DNA of 13,075 nt, taken from the IMG/VR virus record IMGVR_UViG_2690316099_000003; one strand, 5' to 3'. Positions 2,824 through 12,999 of this stretch are shown one piece after another (position 1 is the stretch's first letter; every line of letters starts with the position of its first letter). The position numbers were made by a program, and so were the translations under genes. This DNA comes from a virus (Duplodnaviria > Heunggongvirae > Uroviricota > Caudoviricetes). Under the pieces are notes generated by a model that ran no database searches, was not told where the DNA came from, and saw only the letters and a program-made list of their open reading frames with translations.

Positions 2824-3186
2824 TTAACGACCTGCTGCGCGGAGTTTTCCGTCAGGTTCACCGGCAAGAGTCAGTAATTGTCCCTGGTCTTCCTGCAGAA
2901 TAGTCAGGCGACCACCGCGATTGACATACATCGGCGTTTCGGTGGTGTCTTCTTCGGAAATTTTCCCGCGGTTAGTCGGGCGAACATATGAGAGTTTGTG
3001 TTTGATTTTCACACGGTTCTCATCAAACGGTTCGATTTCCAGGTTGAGCGAGACCTTACCTTTGGTTTTCGTGTTCATCACACCGGAAGCGACTTCACTG
3101 AGAACAGCGCCGATTTTGGTTTCAAATACGCCGCCGTCCAGCTCCCCGATAAATGCCTGCACATCAGTACTGCGTTCGCTAGCCAT
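2824..3186 (-). CDS. yfdP: YfdP-like phage protein (120 aa), first gene of the leftward early operon
   Basis: Track ORF 2824-3504 trimmed to ATG 3186-3184 (MASERSTDVQ...), preceded by GAGGAG about 9 nt upstream; gives 120 aa. The upstream 106 codons of the long ORF lie in the structured GC-rich island and are unlikely to be coding. Confidence 0.5.
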   Translation of the reverse strand: MASERSTDVQAFIGELDGGVFETKIGAVLSEVASGVMNTKTKGKVSLNLEIEPFDENRVKIKHKLSYVRPTNRGKISEEDTTETPMYVNRGGRLTILQEDQGQLLTLAGEPDGKLRAAGR

Positions 3187-3234
3187 TTTGCTGCTCCTCA
3201 TCATATCGACCCTGCAAGGTCGGTTGGTTTCTCC

Positions 3235-3368
3235 ACAAAACAGAGAAGAACACCTGCGGTGGCAGCCGCCCGGATGGATTGGGTTATGAGCCCGTCGTCC
3301 GATGATGCTCTTCTCTGTTTTGTAAAAAGTACGGTACCAGCCGGAAGCAAGGGTACAAGCTGGTACCG
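3235..3368. repeat. Structured element: 15-bp perfect inverted repeat (3235-3249 / 3309-3323, 59-nt loop) followed by a 10-bp perfect inverted repeat (3332-3341 / 3359-3368, 17-nt loop)
   Basis: Read directly: acaaaacagagaaga ... tcttctctgttttgt and cggtaccagc ... gctggtaccg. Sits in a GC-rich non-coding island between the YfdP-like start and the orphan ORF at 3656. Confidence 0.6.
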
Positions 3369-3655
3369 CCAAGACTACACACAGCATAAAGTTGTGGTGC
3401 CGGGTGCCTCCCGGTGCCTGGCGAAGGTTGTACACCAGACGGGTGGGTATCCACAGAAGGTCGACTGTCAGCCTCAACCTTAACCCGCGTGCGCTGAGCC
3501 GCATTCACCACAACGCTAAGGATTCTCTCTGGTTGAAAATACTTAGCTGTTATGTGCCTGCTTTTAGCCACATCAGGCGAGGTGGACCTGGTTATTCCCC
3601 AACAACAAGGATTTGGTTAATCTGGATACCCCCAACAACTAGCTGAGTATTCAAC

Positions 3656-4177
3656 GTGATAGCTGAACTGTCTGCGGCTATGGCTGCTATAAAGGAGACT
3701 GCCGGTCTTGCTAAGGTTATTAATGACGCGAAAACGGATGCAGAAGTTAAAGCTGCAACCATTGAACTCCAGAACAAACTAATCACGCTTCAGGCAGAAT
3801 GCTTCTCTCTTGGCGATGCGATCCGCCTTCGTGATGAAGAGGTGATGCATCTCAAAGCAAAAATTGCAGAGTTTGAAGATTTTTGTGCCAAGGTAGAAGG
3901 ATATGTCCTTGATCAGCTTGACTCTGGTGCTTTTGTTTACTCTAAAAATGAAATTGTGAGTGGAAAAGAAATAACTGTGCATCTGTGCCCACTTTGTTAT
4001 TCCAAAAATATAAAATCGATACTTCATCCGCTTCCAGTAGGTAAAACTTCTCATTTTCTTACAAGCCGTTGCCTTCACTGTGAAAATAAATTTCTTATGG
4101 AAAAAAATCCGATGTACGAACGACCAAGATCATTACGTGAGTCGGGGCGAGATCTGAATTCGCCTTGGATTCCTTAA
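3656..4177 (+). CDS. Orphan hypothetical protein, coiled-coil N-terminus plus C-terminal CxxC...CxxC zinc ribbon (173 aa from GTG 3656; alternative ATG at 3680)
   Basis: Longest ORF in an AT-rich segment; CPLC and CLHC pairs about 26 residues apart; convergent with cI; no convincing SD for either start, so start and coding status are uncertain. Confidence 0.45.
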   Translation: MIAELSAAMAAIKETAGLAKVINDAKTDAEVKAATIELQNKLITLQAECFSLGDAIRLRDEEVMHLKAKIAEFEDFCAKVEGYVLDQLDSGAFVYSKNEIVSGKEITVHLCPLCYSKNIKSILHPLPVGKTSHFLTSRCLHCENKFLMEKNPMYERPRSLRESGRDLNSPWIP

Positions 4178-4208
4178 ATCTTGCATTGGTTGGATGATAC
4201 CCAGATTG

Positions 4209-4281
4209 NNNNNNNNNNNNNNNNNNNNNNNNNNNNNNNNNNNNNNNNNNNNNNNNNNNNNNNNNNNNNNNNNNNNNNNNN
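4209..4281. other. Assembly gap (73 N) flanked on both sides by the same octamer ccagattg
   Basis: Run of n characters read directly; true length and content unknown. Confidence 0.95.
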
Positions 4282-4298
4282 CCAGATTGTTAAAGATC

Positions 4299-4323
4299 GA
4301 AGCGTCCTATAGGGCGCTTTTTT
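4299..4323 (+). terminator. Rho-independent terminator (plus strand): stem gaagcgtcc / gggcgcttt, loop tata, then T-run
   Basis: Hairpin with one G-U wobble followed by tttttt, read directly; lies just right of the gap and downstream of the orphan ORF. Confidence 0.5.
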
Positions 4324-4442
4324 GTTGCTAACGAATCATCCTGGACTTCATTTGCCCCAGGAGGCTACTTTGTGGGCGTCCTGCCTGTTCGTTATCTTTG
4401 ATATTAAATCTAACTTAACTTAGTTTTTAAGGCAAGAGGAAA

Positions 4443-4466
4443 CACCAAACTTTTCTTAGTTTGGTG
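4443..4466 (-). terminator. Stem-loop caccaaac / gtttggtg (8-nt loop) immediately downstream of the cI stop; candidate cI terminator and/or OL operator region
   Basis: Inverted repeat read directly; on the minus strand it is followed by tttcctctt (moderately T-rich). It also contains one copy of the recurring cttagttt motif. Confidence 0.35.
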
Positions 4467-4488: not shown

Positions 4489-5115
4489 CTAGAGTTCGTA
4501 TTGAACTCCTTTGACTACACCAATGATCAGGCAATTACCATTGATTGGGATGTTGGGATACCGTGGATTTAATGGCACTAAAAACTTTTGAGGACCATCG
4601 ATGACTAATTTTTTTACTGTAGCTTCGTTCGTTCCATCAAGTCGAGCAATGACTATTTTTCCATGACGAGGTTCTGCATCAGGATCTACAATCACTGTTG
4701 CACCTTCTGGTATTGTTGGGAGGCCATTAGGATTAGTCATGGAGTCGCCTTTAACTTCTAATGCAAATGAGTTATCACCAATCTTTAAAGATGTATCTAC
4801 CCACTTGTCCACTTCACTAAACACTTCTGCTGCCCTGCACTCAGTAAACTGCCCAGCCTGAACCCACGAAATTACAGGAACTCTGCGCATGTTTGTGACT
4901 AGTTTGCCTTCAAACTCAGCACCATAAAGAATGTAATCTATTGACGTATTAAAGAACTTCGCTAATTTCGAAAGTGCTTCCCCGCCAGGGACATTGATGT
5001 CTTTTTCCCAGTACCCCACAGCAACGTCACTTACCCCACAAAATTTACCCAATTCTTTCTGGGACGTTCTGGTAACCCTTCTCAGAGCTTTTATACGCTG
5101 ACCAACCGTTTCCAT
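4489..5115 (-). CDS. cI-like phage repressor: N-terminal HTH plus C-terminal S24 (LexA-type) autopeptidase domain (208 aa)
   Basis: N-terminal HTH (VGQRIKALRR...TSQKELGKFCGVSDVAVGYWE); C-terminal GDSM catalytic Ser motif and downstream KK (VKKLV) typical of S24 self-cleaving repressors; divergent from the Cro-like gene. Confidence 0.8.
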   Translation of the reverse strand: METVGQRIKALRRVTRTSQKELGKFCGVSDVAVGYWEKDINVPGGEALSKLAKFFNTSIDYILYGAEFEGKLVTNMRRVPVISWVQAGQFTECRAAEVFSEVDKWVDTSLKIGDNSFALEVKGDSMTNPNGLPTIPEGATVIVDPDAEPRHGKIVIARLDGTNEATVKKLVIDGPQKFLVPLNPRYPNIPINGNCLIIGVVKGVQYEL

Positions 5116-5213
5116 AGGAGCACCATTTCTTAAATTACTAAGTAATCTTAGTTTTTATTGACCTAAGATAGATTGATAATTAACATCTAATAAAACTTAG
5201 TTTTGGAGGGCGT
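5116..5213. promoter_or_regulatory. Divergent immunity-region control region (PRM/PR-like) with operator-like palindrome ACTAAG-TAAT-CTTAGT (5137-5152) and further CTTAG/CTAAG half-sites (5163-5167, 5196-5200); candidate PR -35 ttgacc (5158-5163), 17 bp, -10 taacat (5181-5186)
   Basis: 98 bp AT-rich gap between divergent cI-like and Cro-like starts; palindrome and half-sites read directly; promoter hexamers are by-eye matches to the sigma70 consensus. Confidence 0.55.
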
Positions 5214-6353: not shown

Positions 6354-7295
6354 ATGAGCACTAAATTAACCGGCTATGTATGGGATGGTTGCGCAGCGTC
6401 AGGCATGAAATTATCCAGTGTGGCAATTATGGCCCGCCTGGCTGATTTCAGTAATGACGAAGGTGTGTGCTGGCCATCGATTGAAACCATTGCCCGCCAG
6501 ATTGGCGCGGGGATGAGTACCGTCAGAACGGCTATTGCACGGCTGGAAGCAGAAGGCTGGTTAACGCGTAAGGCGCGTCGCCAGGGTAACCGTAATGCGT
6601 CGAATGTTTATCAGCTTAACGTTGCGAAGCTTCAGGCCGCGGCATTTTCTCAACTGTCAGATTCTGACCCGTCAAAATCTGACGCATCAAAATCTGACCC
6701 GTCAAAATTTGATGCGTCGAAATCTGGCAAAAAAGCGGGTTTTCACCCGTCAGAATCTGGCGGGGATCCGTCAGTAAAATCAAAATATGATCCGTCAGAT
6801 AAAAAACCTTCTCGTCCGGACGTTTCGCAACCGGACACGCAGACGGCTGAACAGGATTTTTTAACTCGCCATCCTGATGCGGTTGTATTCAGCCCTAAAA
6901 AGTGCCAGTGGGGAACGCAGGATGATTTGACCTGCGCACAGTGGCTCTGGAAAAAAATCATCGCCCTGTACGAGCAGGCCGCCGAATGTGACGGCGAGGT
7001 GGTTCGTCCCAAAGAACCGAACTGGACAGCCTGGGCAAACGAAATTCGCCTGATGTGTGTGCAGGATGGTCGTACTCACAAACAAATCTGCGAGATGTAC
7101 AGCCGCATCAGCCGCGATCCGTTCTGGTGCCGTAACGTGCTCAGCCCGTCGAAGCTGCGGGAAAAATGGGATGAGCTTTCCCTGCGCTTATCGCCGTCCA
7201 TCAGCACGTACACAGAAAAACGCGAAGACCCGTACTTCAAAGCCAGTTACGACAATGTGGACTACAGCCAGATCCCGGCAGGATTCAGGGGGTGA
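6354..7295 (+). CDS. Phage replication initiator-like protein (O-like / YfdO-like): N-terminal winged-helix region, repeat-rich linker, C-terminal domain (313 aa)
   Basis: N-terminal HTH-like segment (SVAIMARLADFSNDEGVCWPSIETIARQIGAGMSTVRTAIARLEAEGWL); low-complexity DPSKSDASKSDPSKFDASKSG linker encoded by tandem DNA repeats; position after cro/cII as for lambda O. Confidence 0.55.
   Translation: MSTKLTGYVWDGCAASGMKLSSVAIMARLADFSNDEGVCWPSIETIARQIGAGMSTVRTAIARLEAEGWLTRKARRQGNRNASNVYQLNVAKLQAAAFSQLSDSDPSKSDASKSDPSKFDASKSGKKAGFHPSESGGDPSVKSKYDPSDKKPSRPDVSQPDTQTAEQDFLTRHPDAVVFSPKKCQWGTQDDLTCAQWLWKKIIALYEQAAECDGEVVRPKEPNWTAWANEIRLMCVQDGRTHKQICEMYSRISRDPFWCRNVLSPSKLREKWDELSLRLSPSISTYTEKREDPYFKASYDNVDYSQIPAGFRG
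6654..6810. repeat. Iteron-like tandem array inside the replication gene: four 15-bp units (ccgtcaaaatctgac and variants at 6669, 6684, 6699, 6714) plus further ccgtcag-containing copies at 6747, 6768, 6792, ending in an A-rich stretch
   Basis: Repeat units read directly; the arrangement (iterons within the initiator gene followed by A/T-rich DNA) matches the lambda ori layout. Confidence 0.5.
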
Positions 7296-10984: not shown

Positions 10985-11737
10985 ATGAACCTTGAAGCCT
11001 TACCAAAATATTACTCCCCAAAATCTCCAAAATTGAGTGATGACGCACCGGCGACAGGCTCTGGTGGTTTAACGATTACGGATGTGATGGCTGCGCAGGG
11101 GATGGTGCAGTCGAAAGCACCGCTTGGGTTTGCCTTATTCCTGGCAAAAGTTGGTGTTCAGGATCCTCAGTTTGCGATTGAAGGTCTGCTCAATTACGCG
11201 ATGGCACTGGATAACCCGACATTGAATAAATTGAGTGAAGAAACCCGGCTACAGATTATTCCTTACCTTGTGAATTTTGCCTTTGCTGATTATTCCAGGT
11301 CTGCGGCAAGTAAGGCTCGTTGTGAGCATTGTGCTGGTACTGGATTTCATAATGTATTGCTCGAAGTGGTGAAACACTCCAGAAGCGGGGAATCTGTTAT
11401 CAAAGAAGAGTGGGTGAAGGAACTATGTCAGCATTGCCATGGTAAGGGAGAAGTCAGCACAGCGTGCAGAGGGTGTAAGGGTAAAGGTATTGTCCTGGAT
11501 GAAAAAAGGACCCGGCTTCATGGCACACCTGTTTATAAGATTTGTGGGCGTTGCAATGGAAAACGGTTTAGTCGTTTACCAACCACACTGGCGCGGCATC
11601 ATGTCCAGAAGCTGGTACCAGACCTGAGTGATTATCAGTGGTATAAAGGATATGCAAATGTCATTGATAAACTGGTTACAAAGTGCTGGCAGGAGGAATC
11701 TTACGCTGAAGCACAATTGAGAAAGGTGACGAGATAA
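10985..11737 (+). CDS. Late-gene antiterminator Q-like protein (250 aa) with four CxxCxGxG zinc-finger motifs
   Basis: CEHCAGTG, CQHCHGKG, CRGCKGKG, CGRCNGKR read in translation; 250 aa equals the recalled size of Qin QuuQ; followed by a promoter plus terminator as expected for PR'-tR'. Confidence 0.6.
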   Translation: MNLEALPKYYSPKSPKLSDDAPATGSGGLTITDVMAAQGMVQSKAPLGFALFLAKVGVQDPQFAIEGLLNYAMALDNPTLNKLSEETRLQIIPYLVNFAFADYSRSAASKARCEHCAGTGFHNVLLEVVKHSRSGESVIKEEWVKELCQHCHGKGEVSTACRGCKGKGIVLDEKRTRLHGTPVYKICGRCNGKRFSRLPTTLARHHVQKLVPDLSDYQWYKGYANVIDKLVTKCWQEESYAEAQLRKVTR

Positions 11738-12159: not shown

Positions 12160-12372
12160 TCATGAAAGGTAAACATTGGCAGCTGATGGTCCACGCAGAC
12201 CATTTATCCGGCAAAATTCCACGCGTAATCCGGTGGTAATTTCTTCTGCATCACGGAGATTGAGCGCTGAAACATGAAGCTGGACATCGATACGACCATC
12301 GGATGGGGTTATAAGACCTTTGCCGCTTTTGCCGTCAAAGGTTTTGAGAATTCCTGTCATTTTACGGGACAA
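12160..12372 (-). CDS. cspF: Cold-shock-domain protein, CspF/CspH-like (70 aa)
   Basis: CspA-family fold signature ([23 protein letters not shown]...) with degenerate RNP motifs as in the CspF/CspH subgroup; divergent from the CspB-like gene as in Qin. Confidence 0.75.
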
Positions 12373-12672
12373 AAAAATTCCTTAATACTGATAACTTGGC
12401 GCACTATACACACGTTCCTGAAGAAAGCTATAGTTTTTTGATGGGGTTGAAGATGGCTGGATGTCTAAAATAAACATTGCTTCATATGTTCAACTATGCG
12501 TTAATGATTGCGTCGGTTTGAAGAACAGACGATATACGAAGTAGTTTACTAAAGCAGTTCTCATTTCAGGTGTTATTCACTTATTCCTTCTTTGAGTCTC
12601 TCCAATTAAGTACGAAGTCGTTTCTGTTATACAAGCCATTTATGCCGAAAGGCTCAAGTTAAGGAATGTAGA

Positions 12673-12888
12673 ATGTCAAATAAAATGACTGGTTTAGTAA
12701 AATGGTTTAACGCTGATAAAGGTTTTGGCTTTATTTCTCCTGTTGATGGTAGTAAAGATGTGTTTGTGCATTTTTCTGCGATTCAGAATGATAATTATCG
12801 AACCTTATTTGAAGGACAAAAGGTTACCTTCTCTGTAGAGAGTGGTGCTAAAGGTCCAGCAGCAGCAAATGTCATCATTACTGATTAA
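12673..12888 (+). CDS. cspB: Cold-shock protein CspB-like, CspA family (71 aa)
   Basis: [38 protein letters not shown] with RNP1 (KGFGFI) and RNP2 (VFVHF) motifs; about 300 bp AT-rich upstream region consistent with the long 5'UTR of cold-shock genes. Confidence 0.85.
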
Positions 12889-12999
12889 AATTCATAGTTT
12901 GTCTGTATACGATAACGAAGAAGGCTGATGCCTGAGTGGAGATACAGACAGAGTGGTGAATATTGGATCTCTTTAATAAATAGTAAGGAGGTCCAATAC

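Follow-up and report, generated by a model that had tools for sequence, protein, structure and literature searches.

A Probable Rip1-Type Abortive-Infection Gene in an Exchangeable Cargo Slot beside the Repressor of an Escherichia coli Prophage

What is the role of a lone gene that lies between the leftward early operon and the repressor gene of a prophage and is oriented against both, and does it act by itself or together with the DNA beside it? This question is raised by an open reading frame (ORF) of 173 amino acids in a 13,075-nt stretch of Caudoviricetes DNA (IMG/VR record IMGVR_UViG_2690316099_000003), referred to below as the window. The element is a prophage with an integrase, cI/cro, Q and lysis genes. 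The initial annotation, made from the sequence alone, considered the ORF to be an orphan AT-rich zinc-ribbon gene of no recognized family, acquired as lysogen-expressed exclusion or defence cargo in the position of rexAB or sieB, and possibly forming an undescribed RNA-plus-protein module with a structured island located upstream.

The ORF is a genuine, conserved prophage gene. An identical coding sequence is present in RefSeq (WP_000559914.1, labelled 'hypothetical protein'), and megablast retrieves the locus at 99-100% identity from complete E. coli chromosomes, in which the ORF itself is 100% identical. It was found in 54 of the 5426 complete E. coli genomes, and a public assembly collection lists this very sequence in 372 of its indexed blocks. 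A word-indexed search returned 167 homologues at E<=1e-3, while an exhaustive HMM search gathered 2484 clusters at 50% identity, nearly all of them 145-180 aa long and matched end to end. Comparison with 15 orthologues gives dN/dS values of 0.10-0.41, indicative of purifying selection. Across 20 loci, the start codon is GTG in 18 and TTG in one, and the first eight codons display synonymous variation only. The orientation against both neighbours is borne out, as the gene is convergent with the S24/HTH cI-like repressor gene (4489-5115, minus strand), beyond which are found a P22-Cro-like and then a CII-like gene, and divergent from the leftward genes yfdP (2824-3192) and yfdQ (DUF2303). The contrast in base composition holds on one side only: with 41.4% GC (GC3 31.6%), the ORF is more AT-rich than yfdP (50.7%) and the island (52.7%), but cI (42.6%) and cro (43.8%) are equally AT-rich. 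The features of the locus are compiled in Table 1.

Table 1. Position, strand and supporting evidence of the features at the rip1-like locus (window coordinates; L001 is a complete genome).
Feature	Position	Strand	Evidence
Structured island, STnc100-like	3193-3556	-	Rfam match 3544-3322
Conserved leader/expression platform, ~84 nt, common to all cargo types of the slot	3557..3640	+	82% identity, 20 loci
Candidate sigma-70 -35 element TTCCCC	3595-3600	+	proposed assignment
Candidate -10 element TAATCT, invariant	3618-3623	+	proposed assignment; 17 nt after TTCCCC
Direct repeats CCCCAACAAC, 33 nt apart	3597-3609 and 3630-3642	+	confirmed by search
Exchangeable cargo cassette (rip1-like gene with short specific 5' and 3' flanks)	3641..4200	+	similarity breakpoints
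rip1-like CDS, 173 aa, GTG start, stop included	3656..4177	+	ORF list, RefSeq, phrog_1244, PDB 9oox_L, dN/dS
N-terminal helical half (aa 1-80), presumed pore-forming/oligomerising	3656..3895	+	AF2 structure, conservation
C-terminal beta/zinc-ribbon half (aa 81-151), presumed sensor of a phage protein ring	3896..4108	+	strands 84-150, invariant Cys, entropy
Cys codons (C111, C114, C139, C142)	3986-3988, 3995-3997, 4070-4072, 4079-4081	+	C111, C114, C139, C142
73-N run, spurious scaffold gap	4209..4281	.	alignment with complete genome L001
Intrinsic terminator after the cargo, GAAGCGTCCTATAGGGCGCTTT + TTTGTTG, conserved backbone	4299..4326	+	scan on L001 5119-5140 = window 4299-4320
Two operator-like sites, like the OR palindrome ACTAAG-N4-CTTAGT	4409-4424 and 4445-4460	.	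pattern search

By homology, fold, conserved residues and prophage cargo context, the ORF belongs to the Rip1 ('ring interacting pore 1') family, and it is likely that it encodes a single-protein, prophage-borne abortive-infection defence. The profile-HMM and structure-prediction searches suggested in the initial annotation as a check led straight to Rip1, so that the gene is neither an orphan nor a representative of an undescribed family (PDB 9oox; phrog_1244; Patel et al., 2026). A profile built from 44 homologues matched chain 9oox_L, Rip1, with E = 3.3e-20 (profile positions 5-152 aligned to residues 15-161), no other match in the PDB falling below E = 0.8, and the single ORF sequence sufficed to recover the same chain with E = 1.7e-9. 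This entry is entitled 'Escherichia phage HK446 Rip1 in complex with the Enterobacteria phage T6 small terminase', and its Rip1 chain is identical to HK446_037, with which the ORF product shares 25% identity by BLASTP (E = 2e-13) and which was also recovered by tblastn. DMS3-25, of a Pseudomonas phage, is 30% identical (E = 3e-20). Foldseek searches using the AlphaFold (AF2) model returned 9oox_L and 9oox_M only, with a probability of 1.00 and E-values of 6e-7 and 1e-6, the next match having E = 0.45; the TM scores of 0.53/0.68 (range 0.38-0.68) are moderate, which is no surprise for a monomer model set against an assembled state.

Membership is further documented by phrog_1244, a group annotated in PHROGs as 'unknown function', which matches the window protein (E = 2.7e-52), HK446 Rip1 (2.2e-53) and DMS3-25 (3.5e-61) over their full length, as well as the homologues from PhiR49_1 and vB_EcoM-689R2 end to end (E = 1e-40 to 1e-61 over the five proteins). 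The CPLC (C111, C114) and CLHC (C139, C142) motifs on which the zinc-ribbon assignment was founded were kept without change by 44 close members and by 10 distant ones, HK446 Rip1 among them; among members with 24-31% identity, these four cysteines are accompanied by invariant L38, L66, Y83, V94, Y95 and L123. Pfam at E<=1 yielded nothing for the ORF beyond three sub-threshold matches of coiled-coil type (DUF641, Macoilin, Cob_adeno_trans), and scans of NCBIfam and PADLOC 2023 revealed nothing relevant, since all three resources predate the Rip1 family. In the five phage contexts compared, the homologue is always carried by a temperate phage or prophage and is oriented against its neighbours: it adjoins cI here, in PhiR49_1 and in vB_EcoM-689R2, and N in HK446, while DMS3-25 sits between a DUF1804/HTH (small-terminase-like) protein gene and a gene of 550 aa. 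The guess that the slot harbours lysogen-expressed defence cargo is thus very probably right, given the homology to Rip1.

The properties that define Rip1 are taken here from a review (PMC13434031) and a citing paper (PMC13601566), and from the title of PDB entry 9oox; the primary description is that of Patel et al., Nature 651:1060 (2026; doi 10.1038/s41586-025-10075-1). According to these sources, Rip1 is a single protein encoded by prophages and harmless on its own (PMC13434031, PMC13601566), and homologues are common in proteobacterial prophages (PMC13434031, PMC13601566). [quoted passage not shown] The resulting complex is reported to be a pore, through which dye leaks from liposomes and by which cells lyse prematurely (PMC13434031, PMC13601566). 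The same review places rip1 of a P. aeruginosa prophage between the small and large terminase genes (PMC13434031), a position that the surroundings of DMS3-25 match; from this position alone, DMS3-25 is inferred to be the published Pseudomonas Rip1.

In its two-part build, the ORF product is consistent with this description. The AF2 model (pLDDT 90.4) predicts two long helices, at residues 2-24 and 28-79, in agreement with the coiled-coil N-terminus noted at the outset, followed by a beta-rich zinc-ribbon domain in which the four cysteines form a putative zinc site. Mean pairwise identity amounts to 0.72 and 0.65 in the two N-terminal helices against 0.42 in the zinc ribbon, helix 2-24 being the most conserved segment of the protein, whereas the C-terminal half has the highest column entropy and occurs in several very different sequence subtypes. 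The first 18 residues are rich in Ala and Gly, with a mean hydrophobicity of 0.40 and a moment of at most 0.34. Only moderate amphipathicity is computed for the N-terminal helix (Eisenberg moment 0.15-0.34, hydrophobicity 0.24-0.40), a point against the Rip1 reading; HK446 Rip1 and DMS3-25 give similar values. The division into a conserved N-terminal and a variable C-terminal half would suit a protein that couples a constant pore effector with a sensor under diversification, the arrangement reported for Rip1.

Downstream of the gene, the 3' context had been regarded as interrupted by an assembly gap, yet nothing is missing from it. In the 99-100% identical complete genome L001, the two flanks of the run of Ns join directly, with the sequence GATGATACCCAGATTGTTAAAG, and overlap by the 8-nt CCAGATTG that is duplicated on both flanks of the gap in the window; in four further assemblies (L030-L033), too, the stop codons of the ORF and of cI are 230 nt apart. 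The break occurred exactly at the right-hand junction between variable cargo and conserved backbone (4201-4289), likely because these flanks recur in several prophages of one genome. The terminator beyond this junction goes with the cI allele and is conserved irrespective of the cargo, and the two operator-like sites that lie between it and cI likewise follow the cI allele in loci L007 and L013. On the other side of cI, a perfect palindrome ACTAAGTAATCTTAGT (5137-5152) and a copy with two mismatches (5186-5201) flank a TTGACC-17-TAACAT promoter, an arrangement likely to correspond to OR/PR. The sites at 4409-4460 could possibly be OL/PL, reading leftward and antisense through the rip1-like gene; the pattern search detected five sites in the whole window for a chance mean of 3.8, which is not above chance, so this location of PL stays inferential. 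HK446 rip1 is antisense to its PL operon, and early leftward transcription of lambda and P22 runs antisense through sieB.

The gene is one of several occupants of a slot, and its reading as acquired cargo in a variable site beside the repressor is upheld by a leader and terminator that are shared while the cargo is exchanged. Across the 20 loci, which represent at least 12 genera, mean leader identity reaches 82%, also among loci whose proteins share no more than 50% of their residues, the leader being more strongly conserved than the rip1-like protein itself, and the same leader precedes, unchanged, unrelated cargo genes. Similarity between cargo types stops after the second CCCCAACAAC on the left and resumes at CCAGATTGTTAAAG, before the terminator, on the right. 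At least five unrelated cargo types were found behind this leader. Besides Rip1, the occupants of the slot are the ECs1072 family (phrog_5286), phrog_6315, ymfI/ymfJ, a 176-aa secreted-type protein, a 320-aa protein and Pro-rich peptides of 25-28 aa. These other occupants were considered as hidden relatives of Rip1 and rejected as such, hhalign giving a probability of 0.3% for both the 159-aa protein of locus L009 and the ECs1072-family protein. Among 110 evaluable IMG/VR contigs with the leader, 67 carry ECs1072-family cargo, 36 a Rip1-family gene and 7 other genes, proportions that are biased because the window itself supplied the search pattern.

As to the function of the leader, a scan for consensus promoters found no sigma-70 promoter upstream of the ORF, and TTCCCC-17-TAATCT is put forward as a candidate. 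The pair of direct repeats co-varies by phage group, with two copies of CCCCAACAAC here replaced by two of CCCCTACAG in L005 and two of CCCCAACAG in L024-L027. The leader looks like a shared promoter region with paired recognition sites for a factor. A structured RNA was also considered and discarded: RNAalifold gives -3.9 kcal/mol with essentially no covariation, and, measured against shuffled sequences, the plus strand is less stably folded (z = +2.1) and nothing stands out on the minus strand (z = +0.6). In Trabulsiella odontotermitis (L012), the leader is largely replaced, with TAATCT retained, and the full-length homologue is closely preceded by a second, partial rip-like fragment (4698-4922; 75 aa, 35% identity). 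We tentatively suggest that the region from the STnc100-like element to the repressor in e14/CPS-53-type prophages is a standardised plug-in expression slot made of a leader, interchangeable cargo and a shared terminator, that its non-Rip1 cargoes could be defence or exclusion genes, and that the repeat pair might be a regulator site for lysogen-specific expression; taken as a whole, this proposal is more doubtful than probable.

Could the gene instead depend on the island at 3193-3556, as a module of RNA and protein? They are neighbours both in the window and in PhiR49_1, and the strong structure of the island shows in folding z-scores of -5.8 (minus strand) and -3.8 (plus strand). Its better fold, however, is on the strand opposite to the gene, and so is its match to STnc100 (RF02076), which spans the full model length with 38.5 bits (E = 1.6e-5; gathering threshold 47). 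The corresponding matches in L001 (41.2 bits) and L004 (40.3 bits), with E again about 1e-5, are also below 47, and the island is probably a distant relative of STnc100, not a curated member. A terminator-like hairpin, GGTACCAGC...GCTGGTACC followed by TTTTT, closes the minus-strand fold upstream of yfdP; RefSeq annotates the island as a frameshifted pseudogene or, in e14, as 'YmfH'. The neighbourhood comparison advised in the initial annotation shows that island and ORF occur independently. The former is present in 2778 of the 5426 complete E. coli genomes, about half, against 54 for the latter, and it adjoins ymfI/ymfJ (e14), an ECs1072-family gene with a small ORF, or a phrog_6315 gene, none of them related to Rip1; conversely, rip1 homologues of HK446, DMS3, vB_EcoM-689R2 and many enterobacterial loci lack the island. 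The two are therefore independent neighbours. With the review describing Rip1 as a protein that acts alone (PMC13434031), the module reading is largely refuted, and joint action of island and ORF appears extremely improbable. As an aside, the prophage has no N gene, and the island might act in a put-like manner on leftward early transcription; a preprint on Pas sRNAs provided no link between the island and PasD, which lies near Q and not at this locus.

Three further readings concern the protein itself. A Rip1-fold protein responding to some other oligomeric phage or plasmid protein, or serving the timing of the prophage's own lysis or superinfection exclusion, would agree with the very different subtypes of the C-terminal half, with the 25-30% identity to the characterised proteins, and with published triggers that, in the review, already differ by host (portal in Pseudomonas, small terminase in E. 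coli; PMC13434031). We nevertheless regard such a departure as unlikely, in view of full-length homology, invariant cysteines and core residues and an identical prophage-cargo setting, and because nothing points to a different effector. A role in regulating the immunity region by binding nucleic acid, for instance as an antirepressor or a transcription factor, is suggested by the Cys4 ribbon and by the vicinity of cI and cro; since Pfam and NCBIfam scans gave no match to a DNA-binding family, the sole structural relative is Rip1, and homologues are also encoded at a distance from immunity regions, as in DMS3, where packaging genes flank the homologue, this role is highly improbable. Finally, the non-ATG start, the lack of an obvious Shine-Dalgarno sequence and the broken copies of some symbionts (L024, L028, L029) might evoke a spurious or decaying ORF, an idea to which purifying selection, thousands of full-length homologues and invariant key residues leave next to no chance.

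For the preferred reading, a Rip1-type abortive-infection gene, a mode of action can be transferred from the characterised Rip1 proteins of HK446 and Pseudomonas, to which the ORF product is 25-30% identical. Small amounts of the protein would be made in the lysogen from the promoter and leader of the slot; the weak GTG start, with no clear Shine-Dalgarno sequence upstream, would keep levels low. Alone, the protein would be harmless. Late in infection, as the superinfecting phage builds up a ring-shaped assembly protein, presumably its small terminase or portal, the variable C-terminal zinc-ribbon domain would bind around this ring, which would serve as a template for a complex of about 12 subunits, whose conserved N-terminal helices may then form a pore in the inner membrane. 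The permeabilised cell would die before progeny are complete. Upon induction of the prophage itself, leftward transcription from PL, antisense to the rip1-like gene, may lower its expression and, more speculatively, could thereby reduce self-killing.

SieB and RexAB stand for the classical exclusion functions encoded in the immunity region. In lambda, P22 and Rac, sieB is a lysogen-expressed abortive exclusion gene located antisense within the PL operon, and it encodes a membrane protein with a mechanism different from that of Rip1. RexAB is a prophage-encoded abortive defence located beside cI that acts through loss of membrane integrity. The analogy drawn with both systems stands for position, HK446 rip1 also taking a sieB-like place beside N, and for the general logic of prophage abortive defence, but it does not extend to homology: a Pfam scan at E<=1 found no match of the ORF to any SieB family, and RexAB, unrelated in sequence, has two components co-transcribed with cI on the same strand, whereas the gene studied here is single and convergent with cI.

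Within the family, the likeness to HK446 Rip1 comprises a common PHROG, a full-length alignment, the fold of two helices and a zinc ribbon with a CxxC...CxxC arrangement, a lambdoid temperate phage as carrier and a gene oriented against the PL operon. HK446 Rip1 differs by its 25% identity, an N-terminal extension of about 10 aa with an ATG start, another C-terminal subtype and the adjacency of its gene to N, whereas the window gene adjoins the putative OL and cI region with a shared leader and terminator. The Rip1 proteins of P. aeruginosa Mu-like prophages (D3112/DMS3/JBD-type; Patel et al., 2026) are similar in identity (30% for DMS3-25), PHROG and organization as a single opposite-strand gene; theirs is found between DUF1804 and the next packaging gene instead of in the immunity region, and the trigger reported in the review is the portal (PMC13434031). 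Farther afield, TerI and Avs1-3 also exploit conserved phage terminase components as a signal of infection, according to the citing paper (PMC13601566). Avs proteins are large STAND NTPases sensing the large terminase, while TerI and Rip1 sense the small subunit (PMC13434031, PMC13601566), and Rip1 is distinguished from Avs and TerI by combining sensor and pore effector in about 170 aa (PMC13434031).

Several other features of this prophage and its relatives deserve mention. About four copies of a 15-nt repeat, TCTGACCCGTCAAAA, are located at 6663-6726 (plus strand) inside a 313-aa HTH_36 replication-type gene (6354-7295); they look like origin iterons and explain a spurious Rfam match to mir-5880. 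A full-length match to the cspA thermoregulator (161 bits; 12512-12955, plus strand) covers a cold-shock protein gene (12673-12888), and a second CSD gene (12160-12372, minus strand) lies downstream of the Q antiterminator gene (10985-11737). The prophages of L030-L033, which adjoin a HAD-hydrolase gene near holD/rimI, have an identical rip1-like gene and carry other defence-like cargo beside the integrase, about 4-8 kb to the left of the point equivalent to the left end of the window: a 1275-aa protein with a SIR2_2 domain (split in two in L031) or, in L032, a 531-aa protein with a deaminase domain. In insect symbionts (Symbiopectobacterium, Serratia symbiotica and Arsenophonus; L024, L028 and L029), the Rip1 copies are truncated or frameshifted, that of L024 meeting a stop after 13 codons, which is consistent with decay under low phage pressure.

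While the Rip1 family itself has already been described and the ORF adds a further member to it, the plug-in slot with its shared leader of about 84 nt and shared terminator is new in this analysis. A function class can now be given to the 'hypothetical' WP_000559914.1 of RefSeq and to phrog_1244, of unknown function in PHROGs. Searching for the leader and terminator is an easy way to pick up further candidate defence genes across thousands of enterobacterial prophages, and the split in conservation between the N- and C-terminal halves suggests that the sensor specificities of the family could be mined. A prophage family common in E. coli would carry Rip1-type defence in its immunity region, and in practice such prophages may stop therapeutic or laboratory phages late in infection.
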